The notes under the pieces are model-generated. The model was not told the DNA's origin. It saw nothing but the letters and a program-made list of their open reading frames with translations, and did not search any database. From the NCBI GenBank assembly GCA_050743385.1, contig JBOGFJ010000089.1, positions 1-43,823 of the forward strand: a stretch of DNA of 43,823 bases. Reading direction: 5' to 3'. This DNA is from Acidimicrobiia bacterium. Its GTDB lineage: Bacteria > Actinomycetota > Acidimicrobiia > IMCC26256 > JACDBD01. The position numbers were made by a program, and so were the translations under genes. Shown here piece by piece: positions 2,687 through 43,823 of the stretch. Every line of letters begins with the position of its first letter. Position 1 is the first letter of the stretch.

Positions 2687-2705
2687 GCGGGCCTACGCTG
2701 CGGTC

Positions 2706-3770
2706 GTGACGACCGCGGCCGCACCCGTCCGGCTCACGAGCTTCTCGCACGGCGCCGGGTGCGCCTGCAAGCTCGGCCCCGACGACCTGCGCACCGTCCT
2801 CGGGCTCGTCCGCGGGCTCGACGCGCCGGCTGATCCCGATCTGCTCGTCGGGTTCGACACCGCCGACGACGCCGCCGTCTACCGCCTGCGTCGCGATCTC
2901 GCGGTCGTCGTGACGACCGACTTCTTCACGCCGATCGTCGACGACGCCTACGACTGGGGTCGGATCGCCGCCGCCAACGCGCTCTCCGACGTGTACGCGA
3001 TGGGCGGGACGCCCCTGGTCGCGCTCAACCTCGTCGCATGGCCGCGCGTGGGTTTGGCCTTCGACCTGCTCGCGCGGGTGCTCGACGGCGGGGCCGACGT
3101 CGTGCGGGTCGCGGGCGCGCTCGTCGTCGGCGGCCATTCGATCGACGATGCCGAGCCGAAGTTCGGGCTCGCGGTCGTGGGGACCGTAGACCCCGAGCGC
3201 GTGCTCACGAACCGAGGCGCCCGCGCCGGCGACGTGCTCGTGCTGACGAAGCCCGTCGGGCTGGGAGTGATCTCGACCGCGGTGAAGCGCGACGCGGCGC
3301 CACGCGCGCTGGTCGACGAGGCCGTCCGCGTGATGACCACGCTCAACGACGGAGCCCGCGACGCCGCCCTCGAGCTCGGCGCGGCCGTCCACGCCGCCAC
3401 CGACGTGACGGGCTTCGGCTTCCTCGGCCATCTGCGCGAGATGCTGCTCGCATCGGGACTCGCCGCCGCGATCGACGCCGCGAACGTTCCCGTGATCGAC
3501 GGTGTCCGTGATCTGCTCGCGGTCGACACCGTCGCGGGGGGTACGCGACGGAACCACACGTTCGTCAGCGACAGCGTCGACTGGGGTGCGCTCCCCGAGC
3601 CGGAGCAGCTGCTCCTCGCCGACGCACAGACGTCGGGAGGCCTGTTGATCGCGGTCGCCTCCGAGCGGGCCGGCGCCCTGGTCGACGCGCTCGAGGCGCG
3701 CGGCACGCTCGCCGCCGCGACCGTGGGTCGGACGACCACCGGCCGGCCGGGCGACATCGTCGTCATCTGA
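2706..3770 (+). CDS. selD: selenide, water dikinase (selenophosphate synthetase), Cys-type
   Basis: MTTAAAPVRLTSFSHGAGCACKLGPDDL... carries the N-terminal SHGAGCxCK loop of SelD (Cys, not an in-frame TGA). AIR-synthase-like fold motifs follow (DDAAVY, TTDFFTPIVDD, GGHSIDD). 354 aa. Confidence 0.9.
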   Translation: MTTAAAPVRLTSFSHGAGCACKLGPDDLRTVLGLVRGLDAPADPDLLVGFDTADDAAVYRLRRDLAVVVTTDFFTPIVDDAYDWGRIAAANALSDVYAMGGTPLVALNLVAWPRVGLAFDLLARVLDGGADVVRVAGALVVGGHSIDDAEPKFGLAVVGTVDPERVLTNRGARAGDVLVLTKPVGLGVISTAVKRDAAPRALVDEAVRVMTTLNDGARDAALELGAAVHAATDVTGFGFLGHLREMLLASGLAAAIDAANVPVIDGVRDLLAVDTVAGGTRRNHTFVSDSVDWGALPEPEQLLLADAQTSGGLLIAVASERAGALVDALEARGTLAAATVGRTTTGRPGDIVVI

Positions 3771-4928: not shown

Positions 4929-5480
4929 GTGATGGGCCTGGCGGTTCCCGACCTCGACGACGGCGTGGTGCGCCTGCGCCCGCCCGTGCCCGCAGACATC
5001 GACGGCGTCGTCGCGGTGTGCCAGGACGAGGAGGCCGCCCGGTTCACGACGATCCCCTGGCCGTACGAGCGCCACCACGCCGTCGAGTGGGTCGAGGAGT
5101 CGACCCGCTGCTGGGCCGAGGGCGTCCGCGCTTCGTTCGTCATCCTCGACGTGTCGACGGGCGAGGTCGTCGGCAACCTCGGGCTCGTGCGCCTCGAGCC
5201 CGACGGGAGCGTGGCCGAGGTCGGGTACCTCGTGAAGCGCACCGCCCGCGGCCGCGGCGTCGCGTCGCGGGCGGTGAAGCTCGTCGTGCCCTGGGTGCTG
5301 CGCGACCTCGGCTACCAGCGCCTGGAGCTGCAGACCGACGTGCGCAACGTCGCCTCCCAGCGCGTCGCCGAGAAGGCGGGGTTCCGCCGGAAGGGCGAGG
5401 TCGAGCCGCCGGAACGGTGCCGCGACCGCAGCCAGCGCATGGTCATGTTCGCCCTGACGTCCGCCGATCTCGACGGCTAA
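4929..5480 (+). CDS. GNAT family N-acetyltransferase (RimJ/RimL-like)
   Basis: VRLRPPVPADIDGVVAVCQDEEAARFTTIPWPYERHHAVEWVEE...GYLVKRTARGRGVASRAVKLVVPWVLRDLGYQRLELQTDVRNVASQRVAEKAGFRRKGE. The start is either GTG 4929 or ATG 4932. Confidence 0.8.
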   Translation: MMGLAVPDLDDGVVRLRPPVPADIDGVVAVCQDEEAARFTTIPWPYERHHAVEWVEESTRCWAEGVRASFVILDVSTGEVVGNLGLVRLEPDGSVAEVGYLVKRTARGRGVASRAVKLVVPWVLRDLGYQRLELQTDVRNVASQRVAEKAGFRRKGEVEPPERCRDRSQRMVMFALTSADLDG

Positions 5481-6602: not shown

Positions 6603-6605
6603 CCG

Positions 6606-6656
6606 GAGTCTCGAGGCCCACGGGTCCGGAAACCGGACCCCACGGCCTCGAGTCTC
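6606..6656. repeat. near-palindromic intergenic element, family A, copy 1
   Basis: gagtctcgaggcccacgggtccggaaaccggaccccacggcctcgagtctc. Structure is a 12/13-matching outer stem, a 3x3 internal loop (CAC/CAC), an 8-bp inner stem and an AAA loop. Its reverse complement recurs at 35665-35715, differing at 5 of 51 positions by hand alignment. Confidence 0.8.
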
Positions 6657-6667
6657 GGTTCAGCGAG

Positions 6668-7477
6668 TCAGAACAGGAAGTTCATCTCGGCCACGATGCG
6701 GCGCCCGAGGGCGTCGTCGCCGGTGATGGTGACCGCGCCGCTGGCGAGGATCCCGTCGGGGTCGCCGCGGCCCATGCCGAGGCGGACGAGCGTGTCGACA
6801 CCCATGGTGAGCCGGACGGTGGGATGCGCGGGTGCCGTGTCGAGCGGCTTGGCCCGGCCACCGTCCATGACGATGTCGGTGGTGCGGCCGTCCCACGCGA
6901 ACACGACGGTGGCGCCGTCGGGGGGCTTCACCTTCTTCCCCACGACGAAGGGGAGCGCGCCCGTGACCCGGCCCAACGACAGCTCGGCCGCCGCGCCCTC
7001 GAGGTCGCCGGGAAGCTCGAGCGCGCGCCGGATGTCCTGCTCGTGCGCCCACGAGTCGAAGATCCGGAACGGGAGCAGGTCGCGAACCGTGCCCGGGCCC
7101 GCCGGCGTCCACGAGTCTGCGCCGAGGTCGTCGTGCGTCATCGCCCGCAGGTTCGCGATCCGCTCCGCAGTGACGGCGCGGAACTCGTCGAGCACCTCGG
7201 GCCCCGAGCGCGACCGCATGGCGTCGACCCAGACCTCGTTCGACCGACCGATGTCGTTCTTCACGTGGGGCAGGTCGGGCGGGGTGTGATCGGGGGCGGG
7301 CCTCCCCATGATCGACGACTCGATGCCGGCGATGTGGGCCACGTTGTCCTGCACGCTCCAGCCCGGGCACTCGGTCTCGGTCTTCCACTGCGCCTCGCTG
7401 AGCGTCGAGCAGAGCGCGTCGATCGAGCCCCACACTTCTTCGAGCGTGTCGACGAGCCGTTGGTCCTGATCGGTCAT
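6668..7477 (-). CDS. maleylpyruvate isomerase family mycothiol-dependent enzyme (DinB-like N-domain + SCP2-like C-domain)
   Basis: MTDQDQRLVDTLEEVWGSIDALCSTLSEAQWKTETECPGWSVQDNVAHIAGIES...FDSWAHEQDIRRAL...TITGDDALGRRIVAEMNFLF. Its ATG overlaps the upstream gene's stop (ATGA at 7474-7477). Confidence 0.8.
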   Translation of the reverse strand: MTDQDQRLVDTLEEVWGSIDALCSTLSEAQWKTETECPGWSVQDNVAHIAGIESSIMGRPAPDHTPPDLPHVKNDIGRSNEVWVDAMRSRSGPEVLDEFRAVTAERIANLRAMTHDDLGADSWTPAGPGTVRDLLPFRIFDSWAHEQDIRRALELPGDLEGAAAELSLGRVTGALPFVVGKKVKPPDGATVVFAWDGRTTDIVMDGGRAKPLDTAPAHPTVRLTMGVDTLVRLGMGRGDPDGILASGAVTITGDDALGRRIVAEMNFLF

Positions 7478-10243: not shown

Positions 10244-10816
10244 ATGACGCAGACCCAGCAGACCCCCGAACCCCAGTCCGTGCTCGCCCCGGGCATCTGG
10301 GAGATCGACCCGGTGCACACCAACGTCGAGTTCGTCGCCCGCCACCTCCTCTCGCGGGTGCGCGGGCGCTTCCGCGACTTCAGCGGGCAACTCGTGATCG
10401 CCGAGGACCCCACGCGGTCGAGTGTCGACGTGACGATCGAGGCCGCCAGCGTCGACACCGGGAACGCCGACCGGGATGCGCACCTGCGCAGCCCGGACTT
10501 CCTCCACGTCGAGCGGTTCCCGACCCTCGCGTTCCGCGGCACCGCGACGCGGCCCGGAACCGAGCCCGGTCACTACCTCGTCGACGGCGACCTCACGATC
10601 CGCGACGTCACCCGACCGGTCACGCTCGAGGTCGAGTACCACGGTTGGTCCGACGACCCTTGGGGCGGGCAGCGAGCCGCCTTCTCGGCCATGACCGAGG
10701 TCCAGCGCACCGACTTCGGCGCCGACTGGAACGTCGTCGTCGAGACCGGGGGGCTGCTCGTCGGCAAGACCGTCCGCATCGAGCTCGAGGTCGAGGCCAT
10801 CCGGAAGGGCGGCTGA
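10244..10816 (+). CDS. YceI family protein
   Basis: GIWEIDPVHTNVEFVARHLLSRVRGRFRDFSGQLVI...SVDTGNADRDAHLRSPDFLHVERFPTLAFRG...LTIRDVTRPVTLEVEY...VRIELEVEA shows canonical YceI motifs. Confidence 0.9.
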   Translation: MTQTQQTPEPQSVLAPGIWEIDPVHTNVEFVARHLLSRVRGRFRDFSGQLVIAEDPTRSSVDVTIEAASVDTGNADRDAHLRSPDFLHVERFPTLAFRGTATRPGTEPGHYLVDGDLTIRDVTRPVTLEVEYHGWSDDPWGGQRAAFSAMTEVQRTDFGADWNVVVETGGLLVGKTVRIELEVEAIRKGG

Positions 10817-10917
10817 CCCTCCTTTCTGGTCGCGCTCGCTTCGCTCGCCGCTCCGCACGCAGCTGGCGGTCAGGGGGCCGGCAAAGCCGGCCCCCTGTCG
10901 GTGGATGGCACCTCCTC
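10817..10917 (+). repeat. about 100-nt intergenic element, family B, copy 1 (contains a 10-bp GC hairpin at 10873-10895)
   Basis: Starts immediately after the yceI-like TGA. The 34 nt at 10821-10854 (cctttctggtcgcgctcgcttcgctcgccgctcc) are identical to the reverse complement of 43693-43726. This is followed by the shared blocks tggcggtc, the GGGGGCCGGC-AAA-GCCGGCCCCC hairpin, and ggtggatggca.ctcctc. Confidence 0.8.
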
Positions 10918-10929
10918 TAGCCTCTCGCC

Positions 10930-12546
10930 GTGGCGCAGCGGCGAAAGTTCTGGGGGTGGGGGTACGAGGGCGAGGGCCCCACCCGCGCTCAGCAGGAGTC
11001 GATGGCGGCCACACTCGCGGAGCTGTTCGGGGTCAGCCGACTGGCTGTCGCCGAGCCGCCGACCGTCGACGAGCTCGACCTGCCCGAGCCGCGCGTCGCC
11101 CCGCCGCCCGCGCTGGCGGAGCTGTGCAGCACCGGGCCCTACGAGCGCGCCGGTCACACCTACGGGAAGTCGTTCCGGGACATCGTGCGGGCGTTGCGGC
11201 GCGAGTTCCCGCACCCGCCCGACGTCGTCGCCTTCCCTCGTCACGAGGCCGACGTCGTTGCGCTGCTCGACTGGTGCGCCGACGCCGGCCTCGCCGCCGT
11301 CCCGTACGGCGGCGGGTCGTCGGTCGTCGGCGGGGTCGAATGCGACGTCGGCGATGGGCGCTACCGCGGCGTCGTCACCATCGACCTCCGCCGGCTCGGC
11401 CGCGTCGTCGAGATCGACCGCACGTCACGGGCCGCCCGCATCGAGGCCGGGGCTTACGGGCCCGCGCTCGAGGAGCAGCTGCGGCCCCACGGCTTGACCC
11501 TGCGCCACTTCCCGCAGTCGTTCGAGTGCTCGACGCTCGGCGGGTGGCTCGCTACCCGTTCCGGCGGTCATTACGCCACGCTGTACACACACATCGACGA
11601 GTTCGTGGAGTCGCTGCGGGTCGTCACGCCCCGCGGCACCCTCGAGTCGAGCCGCCTCCCCGGGTCGGGCGCGGGCCCGTCTCCCGACCGGCTGTTCCTC
11701 GGCTCCGAGGGAGCTCTCGGGGTCATCACCGAGGCGTGGATGCGCCTCCAGGACCGGCCGACGTTCCGCGCCTCGGCCACGGCGCGCTTCACCGAGTTCG
11801 GCGCCGGCGTGGGCGCAGCCCGCGCGCTCGCCCAGAGCGGGCTGTACCCCACGAACTGCCGCCTGCTCGACGCCGCCGAGGCCGGCATCACCGGCGCCGA
11901 CGACGGCTCCTCCCACGTGCTCCTGGTGGCCTTCGAGTCGGCCGACCACCCGCTCGACGCCTCGCTGGCGCGTGCGCTGGAGCTCGTGCGCGACCACGGC
12001 GGCACCGTCGCCGACAACAGCGTGCGCGTCACCGACGGCGACGCCGGTAGCGGCGCCCGGGAAGGCACGGCGGGCGCATGGCGCAGCGCGTTCCTCCGCG
12101 CGCCGTACACGCGTGACGCCCTCGTCGCCATGGGCTGCGTCAACGAGACGTTCGAGACCGCGATCACCTGGGACCGCTTCGACGCTCTCTACCAGGACGT
12201 GATGCGCTCCACCCGTGACGCGCTCGTCGCCGTCGACGCCGCCAACGGCGTTGTCACCTGCCGCTTCACGCACGTCTATCCCGACGGTCCCGCGCCCTAC
12301 TTCACCGTGATCGCCCCGGGACGCGACGGCGCGCAGCTGGAGCAGTGGGCGGCGATCAAGTCGGCGGCGGCCGACGCCCTGCTACGCCACGGCGCGACCA
12401 TCACGCATCACCACGCCGTCGGGCGCGACCACCGTCCCTGGTACGACCGCCAGCGACCCGAGCCGTTCGCCGACGCGCTGCGGGCAACGAAGGCGACCCT
12501 CGACCCCGCCGCGGTCCTCAACCCGGGAGTGCTGATCGACCCGTGA
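10930..12546 (+). CDS. FAD-binding oxidoreductase (FAD-linked oxidase, alkyl-DHAP synthase-like)
   Basis: MAQRRKFWGWGYEGEGP...VVAFPRHEADVVALLDWCADAGLAAVPYGGGSSVVGGV...IEAGAYGPALEEQLRPHGLTLRHFPQSFECSTLGGWLATRSGGHY... has a PCMH-type FAD domain plus a C-terminal oxidase domain. GTG start. Confidence 0.85.
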   Translation: MAQRRKFWGWGYEGEGPTRAQQESMAATLAELFGVSRLAVAEPPTVDELDLPEPRVAPPPALAELCSTGPYERAGHTYGKSFRDIVRALRREFPHPPDVVAFPRHEADVVALLDWCADAGLAAVPYGGGSSVVGGVECDVGDGRYRGVVTIDLRRLGRVVEIDRTSRAARIEAGAYGPALEEQLRPHGLTLRHFPQSFECSTLGGWLATRSGGHYATLYTHIDEFVESLRVVTPRGTLESSRLPGSGAGPSPDRLFLGSEGALGVITEAWMRLQDRPTFRASATARFTEFGAGVGAARALAQSGLYPTNCRLLDAAEAGITGADDGSSHVLLVAFESADHPLDASLARALELVRDHGGTVADNSVRVTDGDAGSGAREGTAGAWRSAFLRAPYTRDALVAMGCVNETFETAITWDRFDALYQDVMRSTRDALVAVDAANGVVTCRFTHVYPDGPAPYFTVIAPGRDGAQLEQWAAIKSAAADALLRHGATITHHHAVGRDHRPWYDRQRPEPFADALRATKATLDPAAVLNPGVLIDP

Positions 12547-35443: not shown

Positions 35444-35666
35444 CTATCCCATTGAGCCGGGGGGTGGAAGCACACCCCGTATGCTGCCGCGGTGCGGCGG
35501 GTCATCGACAGGCTGCTCGGGGGGTGGCGCTCCTCGCCATCCGCGGTCTCTTCCGCACGGTGGAGCTCGCCGATCTTGCCCATCGCCACCGCCGTCGTCG
35601 GGGTCGGCCGGTCCTCGTCGTCGCCCACCACTGCAACGGCTTCGTCGACCACGAGGGACCGCCGGT

Positions 35667-35713
35667 GACTCGAGGCCGTGGGGTCCGGAATCCGGACCCG
35701 TGGGCCTCGAGTC
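35667..35713. repeat. near-palindromic intergenic element, family A, copy 2 (inverted relative to copy 1)
   Basis: gactcgaggccgtggggtccggaatccggacccgtgggcctcgagtc. Blocks of 22 and 20 consecutive nt are identical to the reverse complement of 6606-6656. The element ends 10 nt before GTG 35724. Confidence 0.8.
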
Positions 35714-35723
35714 TGGGGCGGTC

Positions 35724-42851: not shown

Positions 42852-43550
42852 CTACTCCCCGCCGCTCTCGCCCTCGGCCGCCTCGCCGCCCTCGGCCGCC
42901 GCCGCCTCGCCCTCGCCCTCGGCAGCCTCACCCTCGGCGGCCTCACCCTCGACCTCTTCGCCCTCCTCGGCCTCGGGCTCGGGCTCCTCGACCACGCGGG
43001 GCATGACCACCTGCACGACGAGCTCCTCGGGCTCGTTCTGCAGTGCGACGCCCGCGGGTATCGCGAGCTCCTCGATCCGCAGCTGGTCGCCGATCTCGAG
43101 GGCGGACACGTCGACCTCGATGGCGTTGGGGATGTCGGCGGGCTTCGCCTGGATGGCGAGCGAGAACACGAGCTGCTCGAGGACGCCGCCGTCGCGCACA
43201 CCCGCGGGCTCGCCCTCGAGGTGCACGGGGATCTCGGCCTCGACGGCGACGTCGCGGCGGATGCGGACGAAATCGACGTGGATGAGCTCGCCGCGCGTCG
43301 GGTGCCGCTGGATCTGGCGGGCGAGCGTGAGGATGTCGTCGCCATCCCACTTCAAGGTGATCAGCGTGTTGGCGCCGGCCTCGCCGCTGAGGATGTGCTG
43401 GAGCTCGCGGGCGGGGACGGTGACGTTGAGCGTCTCGGTCTCGAGGCCGTAGATGACGGCCGGCACCTTCCCCTCGCGGCGCAGCCGGCCAGCGGGGCGG
43501 CTGCCCCTGACGGTGCGGGGTTGGGCGGGGAGCAGGATGTCGTCGGGCAT
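42852..43550 (-). CDS. rplY: 50S ribosomal protein L25/general stress protein Ctc, with acidic Glu/Ala/Gly-rich tail
   Basis: ATG 43550: MPDDILLPAQPRTVRGSRPAGRLRREGKVPAVIYG...LTLARQIQRHPTRGELIHVDFVRI... The C-terminal tail is EEPEPEAEEGEEVEGEAAEGEAAEGEGEAAAAEGGEAAEGESGGE. Confidence 0.9.
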   Translation of the reverse strand: MPDDILLPAQPRTVRGSRPAGRLRREGKVPAVIYGLETETLNVTVPARELQHILSGEAGANTLITLKWDGDDILTLARQIQRHPTRGELIHVDFVRIRRDVAVEAEIPVHLEGEPAGVRDGGVLEQLVFSLAIQAKPADIPNAIEVDVSALEIGDQLRIEELAIPAGVALQNEPEELVVQVVMPRVVEEPEPEAEEGEEVEGEAAEGEAAEGEGEAAAAEGGEAAEGESGGE

Positions 43551-43626: not shown

Positions 43627-43726
43627 GGAGGAGCTGCCATCCACCGGCGAGGGGGCCGGGTCTCCCGGCCCCCGGACCGCCAGGATTGCGCGGGAGCGGC
43701 GAGCGAAGCGAGCGCGACCAGAAAGG
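43627..43726 (-). repeat. about 100-nt intergenic element, family B, copy 2 (hairpin at 43650-43672)
   Basis: The reverse complement begins immediately after the rplQ TGA, reading cctttctggtcgcgctcgcttcgctcgccgctcc...tggcggtc.GGGGGCCGGG-AGA-CCCGGCCCCC...ggtggatggcagctcctc. It aligns along its whole length to 10817-10917. Confidence 0.8.
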
Positions 43727-43823
43727 TCAGACGAGTTCGATGCGCGCCATGGGCGCGTGGTCGCCCGGGCGGGGACCGAGCTTGAGGATCCGCAGGTAGC
43801 CGCCGTTGCGCTCGGTGTAACGG
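43727..43823 (-). CDS. rplQ: 50S ribosomal protein L17, C-terminal end (5' part outside the window)
   Basis: Hand translation of the minus strand gives ...[31 protein letters not shown], which matches the conserved L17 C-terminus (GGYTRI.K...R.GD.A.MA.IELV). Confidence 0.7.

Follow-up and report, generated by a model that had tools for sequence, protein, structure and literature searches.

A dispersed ~100-nt hairpin repeat abutting stop codons in uncultured soil Acidimicrobiia: a probable non-autonomous mobile element

The stretch analyzed here, called the window throughout, is the entire 43,823-nt contig JBOGFJ010000089.1 of an Acidimicrobiia metagenome-assembled genome (MAG; GenBank assembly GCA_050743385.1). 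It carries two copies of one ~100-nt non-coding element. Copy 1 lies on the forward strand between a yceI-family gene and a gene for an oxidase linked to flavin adenine dinucleotide (FAD), and copy 2 lies on the reverse strand near the contig end, upstream of the gene for ribosomal protein L25 (Table 1). The pair had been proposed in a first-pass annotation made from the sequence alone, and our alignment reproduced it: both segments are present, are ~85% identical and share the 34-nt exact block CCTTTCTGGTCGCGCTCGCTTCGCTCGCCGCTCC, the string TGGCGGTC, a 10-bp GC hairpin and the tail CGGTGGATGGCAsCTCCTC, as had been aligned by hand. The hairpins of the two copies differ by one compensatory pair (GGC-AAA-GCC vs GGG-AGA-CCC). 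Block and tail occur twice each in the window, and none of 100 dinucleotide-preserving shuffles gave two matches. A covariance model (CM) built for the family matched both copies with the scores listed in Table 1, and its next match in the window reached 16.7 bits.

The boundaries of copy 1 were also as first described, running from the yceI stop codon to a point 12 nt before GTG 10930. The yceI product was 100% identical to a protein named "YceI family protein", and its C-terminus (...EAIRKGG*) is kept in relatives. Judged from sequence conservation, GTG 10930 is the true start of the FAD oxidase gene, because three relatives keep the N-terminus read from it (VAxRRKFWGWGYEGEG) in the same frame, their DNA differing by synonymous changes. 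The NCBI call for the identical locus starts at the internal ATG 11002 (position 3532 of locus L001; the loci numbered in this way are 8-kb stretches around matches, not whole MAGs) and misses 24 conserved N-terminal codons, including KFWGWGYEGEG. The sequence of copy 1 was found unchanged in two other assemblies.

Table 1. Coordinates of the two element copies, their parts and the neighboring genes in the window
Feature	Position	Strand	Basis or remark
Stop codon TGA of the yceI-family gene	10814-10816	+	Gene 10244-10816 from the open reading frame (ORF) list; element starts 1-5 nt later
Copy 1, complete, between yceI and the FAD-linked oxidase gene	10817-10917	+	CM match 10818-10917, 106.9 bits
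Copy 1, 5' block, C/T-rich and near-invariant (TGGTCGCGCTCGCTTCGCTCGCC GCTCCGCACGC)	10827-10860	+	Family signature
Copy 1, GC hairpin	10871-10897	+	Arms 10871-10882 and 10886-10897, loop AAA 10883-10885; fold and family covariation
Copy 1, 3' tail TCGGTGGATGGCACCTCCTC, with the conserved motif GATGGCAsCTCC	10898-10917	+	Alignments
Native CTAG at the 3' edge of copy 1	10917-10920	+	Comparison of empty and filled sites
FAD-linked oxidase gene, 3' of copy 1	10930-12546	+	ORF list; Pfam FAD_binding_4 and FAD-oxidase_C in the orthologue
pth, following the L25 gene	42228-42842	-	After the L25 gene
Ribosomal protein L25/Ctc gene, downstream of copy 2	42852-43550	-	ORF list; matches named 50S ribosomal protein L25
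Copy 2, 5' of the L25 gene	43627-43726	-	CM match 43628-43729, 105 bits
Copy 2, GC hairpin	43651-43673	-	Arms 43673-43664 and 43660-43651, loop AGA 43663-43661
3' end of the L17 (rplQ)-like ORF	43727-43823	-	Translation; TGA 43729-43727; last 97 nt of the contig

The setting of copy 2 calls for more caution. The first-pass annotation had placed it between the genes for L17 and L25. Copy 2 does start directly after the TGA of the L17-like ORF, but the adjacency of rplQ and L25 is doubtful, because the gene order is glmU-prs-L25-pth-mfd in every relative examined, with prs and not rplQ upstream of L25, and because the contig of a sister assembly stops inside the repeat. In that assembly (L049, positions 1-140), whose L25 is 100% identical, at least two identical tandem copies lie upstream of L25. 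By this comparison, the rplQ/L25 adjacency may be an assembler join through the repeat (or a collapsed array) or a real rearrangement through it, and it should not be used as context evidence.

Scanning species genomes (one genome per species) with an exact 23 nt of the block gave 42 loci in total, of which 37 belong to the family: 14 in MAG TH_ant_mag_105, 20 in MAG SAR216 and 3 in two further Acidimicrobiia MAGs. Four of the others are different, block-sharing repeats in Actinomycetes MAGs, and one is a chance coding match. The same 23-mer was found in at least 120 stretches of metagenome contigs. The element is a dispersed, multi-copy family in uncultured soil Acidimicrobiia genomes, with a copy number far above the two seen in the window, and, as the first-pass annotation had concluded, it is a discrete reusable module and not part of a duplicated operon. 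The exact-pattern scan of viral contigs and the BLASTN search of plasmids gave no match. Rfam matched only a tRNA in the window at the gathering threshold; over the element its best E values were 0.4-1.3, far below threshold, so that no described Rfam family was matched. Tandem arrays were seen in eight loci (L011, L041, L047, L049, L086, L120, L147, and L171), head-to-tail and not inverted, and two loci (L022 and L025) hold copies from which the hairpin has been deleted.

A typical copy is 97-104 nt long, which is not a multiple of 3, and its 5' edge reads [stop codon or YTAR]-CTCTTC (Y, pyrimidine; R, purine). The 5' block TGGTCGCGCTCGCTTCGCTCGCCGCTCCCGCACGC comprises ~35 nt and is almost invariant, C/T-rich and free of A, with a C count twice the G count. 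The 12 nt of it beyond the 23-mer are at least 90% conserved even though they were not used for ascertainment. We regard the block as a candidate recognition site for a putative mobilizing enzyme. A variable stretch of ~12 nt leads from the block to a GC-rich hairpin of 10-12 bp with the loop AAA, GAA, GGA or AGA (RRA), and a second variable stretch of ~8 nt leads to the 3' tail GATGGCAGCTCC, behind which CTAG or CTAA often stands.

Covariation in the hairpin was examined in 106 distinct metagenome copies, none of which had been used to build the model. Standard pairs filled 95.4% of the hairpin cells, and nine of the ten pairs showed two-sided changes, amounting to 110 cells (at one pair, for example, G-C in 49 copies vs C-G in 43). 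These pairing values were reached by none of 500 shuffles, and the signal was lost when the partner columns were slid. The hairpin raised in the first-pass annotation is therefore strongly supported and, on this comparative evidence, is under selection as a structure. One copy (L044) has the hairpin flipped, with the loop TCC. Pairing beyond the central hairpin gave nothing convincing; an outer helix (AGCUG/CAGCU or RUCC/GGAU) was rejected, as by eye it was not conserved across subfamilies.

A coding function was also considered. A small ORF on either strand was rejected, because there is no conserved start or frame, the length is not divisible by 3 and six frames are trivially open in GC-rich DNA. 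A read-through product or C-terminal extension was rejected as well, because the frame relative to the stop differs between copies (copy 1 has 4 extra nt). Promoter and terminator scans around copy 1 returned nothing. Terminator-like sites numbered zero in 10500-11200, no U-tract was present on either strand, and the hairpins are followed by TGTCGGTGGATGG and TCGCCGGTGGATGG. A strong GC hairpin just downstream of genes resembles an intrinsic terminator, but the missing U-tract and the empty terminator scan set the element apart, and the terminator offered among the first suggestions was not supported in its canonical form.

Nine orthologous pairs of copies were compared for divergence. Differences were found at 0 of 207 positions in the block 23-mer, 2 of 108 in the adjoining 12 nt and 28 of 516 in the rest of the element; the first figure is biased because the loci were fetched by the exact 23-mer, and the unbiased 12 nt were not significantly slower than the rest. 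The ~12 nt 5' of the hairpin carried 4-5 differences in two orthologous comparisons (L029 vs L005 and L023 vs L067) in which the remainder was nearly identical. This patch is either a local hot spot or a trace of conversion between paralogous copies.

The gene context was classified for 151 non-redundant copies with a codon model trained on the loci themselves. Fifty-four copies lie between convergent genes, 24 between co-directional genes in sense and 13 in antisense orientation, and 11 between divergent genes. With 24 sense vs 13 antisense copies, the rule drawn from the two window copies, that the element keeps the same orientation relative to both genes, was not supported as it stood. The 5' edge faces a stop codon in 90 copies and a start codon in 28, and in 52 of those 90 the neighbor's stop forms positions 1-3 of the element. 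At the 3' edge, the stop of a convergent gene forms the last three positions in 23 copies. A conserved 5' leader, another early suggestion, was not borne out, the downstream neighbor being more often the stop of a convergent gene than a start. In the convergent pairs of L038, L028, L006, L036, and L016, the element makes up the whole intergenic region from stop to stop.

The tetranucleotide YTAR is scarce outside the elements, with 123 sites in 383 kb (51 at predicted stop codons, 49 intergenic, and 23 coding). Both flanks were available for 137 copies. Of these, 32 carry it at the 5' edge and 45 at the 3' edge, an enrichment of about 100-fold at both ends over the 0.25% expected by background in an 8-nt window. 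The two ends are associated: a 3' YTAR is found in 20 of the 32 elements that have one on the 5' side and in 25 of the 105 that do not. TAG is over-represented among the stops that touch the element (21 TAG, 16 TGA, and 6 TAA, vs 92 TAG, 169 TGA, and 34 TAA among other stops). Orthologous filled sites can differ in the stop (TAG in L087 vs TGA in L024; TAG in L082/L092 vs TGA in L086). The stop therefore drifts after insertion, and for this reason TGA edges are compatible with a YTAR target. The fourth flanking base at the two ends (CTAG/CTAG vs CTAA/CTAG) was, by eye, about equally often the same and different, so that the duplicated unit may be only TA or CTA.

Close relatives with empty sites were found at all three loci compared. 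At the first (yceI-FAD oxidase), the intergenic region spans 113 nt in the window and 27 nt in L050/L051; where YceI is 75-85% identical, relatives show either this 27-nt region or a 60-nt one of unrelated spacer sequence. The empty site of a relative with 85% identical YceI reads TGA GGCTCACCCTCACC TAGCCTGCTCGCC GTG, and the filled site of the window reads TGA [CCCT CCTTTCTGG...GGCACCTCCTC] TAGCCTCTCGCC GTG, with the insert in brackets. All empty sites carry a native CTAG that lies 12 nt ahead of the GTG. Because it stands at the same place in each of them, it is the probable insertion target of copy 1, as far as sequence comparison can tell. At the second locus (prs-L25), the site is empty in L045 (L25 90% identical) and L046 (80%), and filled in the window, in L020 (L25 85%) and in L047 (77%), which holds 2.3 tandem units.

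The third locus, between the convergent genes sufC and ykuD, is empty in L054-L058 and filled in L038. In TH_ant_mag_105 and three further assemblies (SufC 95% identical), the gene ends overlap in the tetranucleotide TTAG, where sufC has the stop TAG and ykuD, on the other strand, the stop TAA (..ACGACT TAG ACGACC..). A relative at 90% has the overlap in CTAG (..GGC TAG GCGACG..). At the filled site of SAR216 (..AGC TAG[element]CTA GACGAC..) the tetranucleotide is doubled, and each gene keeps a stop that abuts the element. Read from the aligned sites, the target has been duplicated, so that both genes have a stop codon. The sufC target also resembles the 5' end of the element (CTAGCTCGTTCGG vs CTAGCTCTTCTGG).

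Several observations touch these and similar insertion sites. In a more distant relative (L059, 3329-3561; SufC 82% identical), the sufC-ykuD spacer measures ~230 nt and is filled by degenerate pieces of related repeats, among them the hairpin-less copy GCGCTCGCCGCTCCCGCGCAATCCTGGCGGCAGGCCGGTGGATGGCAGGCC and further GC hairpins; elements of this kind seem to gather and decay there, as at a hot spot. Upstream of the empty sufC site in L054, L055, and L056 (1-729), sufB carries an intein whose homing-endonuclease domain is of the LAGLIDADG type (Pfam matches Intein_splicing and LAGLIDADG_3). The copy in L114 (183-290) is flanked by a 9-10-nt direct repeat, TTCTGATGT, which is not YTAR and does not fit a simple TA/YTAR duplication. 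Copies in L077 (60-210), L147 (~2700-3060), and L043 (2230-2380) lie inside a perfect 20-nt inverted repeat (ATTGTTTCGGCTGTGTGAAC ... GTTCACACAGCCGAAACAAT) of unusually low GC content, and may be insertions in the loop of a different palindromic element or of a terminator. The L147 copies form an array of at least four units with a 77-nt period.

We consider it likely that the element is a ~95-100-nt non-coding interspersed repeat, mobile now or recently but not self-moving, which inserts at TA/YTAR sites in the manner of MITEs (transposable elements of the miniature inverted-repeat type) or repetitive extragenic palindromic (REP) sequences. A REP/MITE-like element was one of several options in the first-pass annotation, and it is favored by the dispersal of the copies, the insertion polymorphism at three loci and the target duplication at one. 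An enzyme supplied in trans would read the near-invariant 35-nt block, the hairpin or both. Integration would take place at TA inside YTAR (CTAG, CTAA, or TTAG) and duplicate the YTAR, as seen at the sufC/ykuD locus and supported across the family by the statistics. YTAR is very rare in this high-GC genome and mostly coincides with TAG/TAA stops, and insertions thus end up exactly at gene ends, often where convergent stops had overlapped. The abutting of stop codons and the excess of convergent contexts would follow from the preference for TA in YTAR, from the scarcity of YTAR away from stops and from the loss of insertions that disrupt genes. An insertion of this kind would be harmless, because the duplicated CTAG leaves each neighbor with an intact stop.

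After insertion, the stop can drift among TAG, TAA and TGA, a copy can lose its hairpin, and units can multiply into short tandem arrays. The hairpin would be kept by compensatory changes, either for the mobilizing enzyme or as a 3'-end structure of the host. The latter is plausible by analogy with REP elements; in such a role the hairpin might serve as an exonuclease barrier or as an aid to pausing or termination for transcripts arriving from either side. In the case of copy 1, a ~100-nt hairpin-bearing insert now splits yceI from the FAD oxidase gene, the two being 27 nt apart in relatives.

A number of observations weigh against this mobile-repeat reading. The element has no terminal inverted repeats (TIRs): when the 3' end is reverse-complemented (GAGCTGCCATCC) and set against the 5' end (CTCTTCTGGTCGCG), only the flanking CTAG is common to both. 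The lack of such repeats is unusual for transposons that duplicate TA or YTAR. No full-length partner, nor split 5' and 3' halves around a gene, appeared in ~1 Mb of loci, and there was no transposase among the annotated neighbors in the loci examined. About half of the copies have no 5' YTAR, and NTGA stands there in 34 of 137. The clean duplication comes from one locus plus the statistics; at prs-L25 no duplication is visible, and at the yceI locus there is no 5' copy of the CTAG and the 14-nt spacer of the empty sites is mostly gone. In the hairpin, G-T (14) and A-C (12) mismatches are equally frequent, which gives no signal for one strand acting as RNA.

IS630-like and IS5-like transposases typically duplicate TA and YTAR, and these target preferences are also those of MITEs derived from TA-duplicating (IS630/Tc1-mariner-like, e.g., Correia and RUP) or YTAR-duplicating (IS5-like) transposons. 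The element resembles such MITEs in its size (~100 nt, MITEs being under about 300 bp), in its lack of coding capacity, in its many dispersed copies and in its insertion polymorphism; at sufC/ykuD, TA/YTAR also stands once in the empty site and on both sides of the filled one, with statistical support across the family. It differs from them in having no TIRs, no parent insertion sequence identifiable in the ~1 Mb of loci and a conserved 35-nt block on one side. The one-sided block, the absence of inverted repeats and the resemblance of the sufC target to the element would also suit a site-specific or single-strand recombinase.

A bolder version of the mobile-repeat reading may be put forward tentatively, as a possibility well short of likely. 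The element would be an undescribed actinobacterial mobile repeat without TIRs that homes to stop codons (TA in CTAG, ideally in overlapping convergent stops) and rebuilds TAG on both sides, moved by a recombinase that reads the 35-nt block. The block would then be a possible phylum-wide cis-site for mobilization, shared with minisatellites of Actinomycetes (L030 and L017, described below), and the hairpin a possible portable, bidirectional 3'-end module. On present evidence, the element is a new and well-populated family of small, probably mobile repeats on the MITE/REP/TRIT theme and not a novel class of regulatory RNA.

TRIT ("Tuberculosis Rho-independent terminator"), described in the RNIE paper with 147 copies in M. 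tuberculosis (Gardner et al. 2011; PMC3152330), is the closest analogue in behavior. Both are conserved actinobacterial hairpin motifs at gene ends, present in more than 100 copies and distributed very narrowly around the stop codon (PMC3152330). TRIT is palindromic, mostly bidirectional, confined to Mycobacterium and centered at about -8, inside the coding sequence (PMC3152330). By these descriptions the element is set apart from TRIT: it is asymmetric (a 35-nt unstructured block, then the hairpin, then the tail), occurs in Acidimicrobiia, starts after the stop and is insertion-polymorphic with CTAG duplication. The asymmetry argues against membership in TRIT.

An RNA module selected by the host, whose spread would be secondary, is in our view an unlikely explanation. 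The element would act as a 3' untranslated region element, a factor-dependent terminator or a 3'-derived small RNA; the C-rich, G-poor block would serve for Rho loading or protein binding, and the hairpin for pausing or as a 3'-end structure. This would account for the preference of the 5' edge for stops over starts, and for the stop lying at a fixed distance from the block in the 52 copies mentioned above; however, the fixed stop position is accounted for by the YTAR target, and the orientation bias between co-directional genes is weak. The A-free block, in which C outnumbers G two to one, and the palindrome behind it follow the layout used in predicting Rho-dependent terminators, a C>G stretch and then a palindrome (RhoTermPredict, bioRxiv 10.1101/2022.06.01.494293). 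The element has neither a U-tract nor a terminator-like site, whereas mycobacterial RNA polymerase needs a U-tract, as far as the account in PMC3993855 goes, and predicted hairpin motifs such as TRIT lie at only 2-4% of mapped M. tuberculosis 3' ends. The hairpin covaries and its loop is purine-only on one strand, but its wobble pairs show no strand preference. The low divergence of the block in orthologues would also fit an RNA module, subject to the ascertainment by the exact 23-mer and to the adjoining 12 nt, which are not significantly slower. Finally, the absence of the element from close relatives at all three loci speaks against a module kept by the host.

Movement of a REP-type element by a REP-associated tyrosine transposase (RAYT; IS200/IS605-like, of the HUH type), or by another single-strand or site-specific recombinase that reads the hairpin, seems doubtful to us and still less probable than a host RNA; in this case CTAG would be a target or core sequence and not a duplication made by a staggered cut. 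REP sequences and the bacterial interspersed mosaic elements (BIMEs) composed of them are, like the present element, extragenic GC-rich stem-loops at 3' ends and between convergent genes, and are candidates for protecting mRNA 3' ends (PMC2817692). The single conserved GC hairpin with compensatory changes, the lack of TIRs and the location of most copies outside genes, at 3' ends, would suit such a mechanism, as would the flipped hairpin of L044. The homology between the sufC target and the 5' end of the element fits a recombinase that uses a core sequence. REPs are 20-40 nt long, clustered in alternating orientation and without target duplication (PMC2817692), none of which applies here: the unit is ~100 nt, far longer than a REP, its arrays are head-to-tail, and no inverted doublets like those of BIMEs or of REP doublets forming hairpins (REPINs) were present in the copies seen. 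Moreover, the most conserved part is the unstructured, non-palindromic 35-nt block and not the palindrome, the doubled CTAG at sufC/ykuD is at odds with single-strand transposition of the HUH type, which makes no duplication, and no RAYT gene was seen in the 8-kb loci around the matches.

The block also occurs outside the family. Two Actinomycetes MAGs (MFD02416.bin.3.361 and bin.1.284) hold head-to-tail minisatellites with the exact 23-mer, made of 86-nt units in L030 (2380-2690) and of 93-nt units in L017 (6950-7420). Each L030 unit contains a 29-codon ORF that overlaps the next at ATGA and is coupled to a leuA/cimA-like gene, an architecture like that of mycobacterial interspersed repetitive units (MIRUs) without sequence similarity to them. 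In another Actinomycetes MAG (RYN_51), in L027 (~5250-5290) and L032 (~6740-6790), the hairpin behind the block is a different one (GCGAAGCGG...CGCTTCGC), which makes this a third variant. The sequence GGGGTGAGACA precedes the block in L027 and L017.

A minisatellite of the MIRU type, that is, a small-ORF unit at gene junctions that keeps translation coupled and counts the Acidimicrobiia copies among its members, is very improbable. MIRUs (Supply et al. 1997, via PMC12548453 and PMC6286618) resemble the element in being actinobacterial, in lying exactly at gene boundaries, in apparent mobility, in tandem arrays and in the minimal damage done to neighbors. The link through L030 is the most suggestive, as its 86-nt tandem repeat has the same 23-mer together with a GGATGGgAGC tail, and its units encode MRPSGERSERATVVAPIPRPERRAKRARP* with ATGA stop/start overlaps, the last on the ATG of the leuA/cimA-like gene; short tandem arrays are found in the Acidimicrobiia family, too. 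Even so, the element, the L030 unit and the L017 unit showed no significant similarity to MIRU motifs A and B or to MIRU292. Membership was rejected on the local alignment scores of 12-23 against motif A (TGACGAGGAGCGGCGCAGATGGCA) and motif B (GGCGCCGGTGACGATGCAGAGCGTAGCGA), taken from PMC6286618 and PMC7977185, which lay within the range of 300 shuffles on both strands. The element also lacks the coding design, with a length of 97-104 nt, no ORF and no start codon or ATGA overlap at its ends, and its copies are mostly solitary and found at the 3' ends of genes, next to stop and not start codons. The resemblance to MIRUs is one of life-style only.

That the pair is an artefact of assembly or a chance local duplication limited to this contig, for which only the suspect upstream junction of copy 2 at the very contig end could be cited, is ruled out for practical purposes by hundreds of copies in independent assemblies and samples and by the identical copy 1 in two other assemblies.

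The repeat adds a well-defined family for the poorly studied, uncultured soil Acidimicrobiia, and explains a conserved "orphan" intergenic sequence for annotation. It also matters for the quality control of assemblies, since contigs break or mis-join at the element, as they probably did at the end of the window. If the mobile-repeat reading is right, it offers a simple mechanism by which a selfish repeat can reach stop codons with single-nucleotide precision: TA/CTAG is scarce elsewhere in a high-GC genome, and the duplication saves both stops. The same reasoning may apply to the mycobacterial TRIT motif and its position at stop codons. Where two genes used to be neighbors (27 nt apart in relatives), inserts like copy 1 have put a strong hairpin between them and would be natural experiments on operon polarity. 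The invariant block, common to the family and to MIRU-like minisatellites of another class, points to a putative mobilization machinery.

A separate repeat was noted in the window at 6603-6658 and 35662-35717. It is a palindrome of ~56 nt, CCGGAGTCTCGAGGCCCACGGGTCCGGAAACCGGACCCCACGGCCTCGAGTCTCGG, and its two occurrences are 82% identical when compared directly and 94% complementary when compared as inverted arms.

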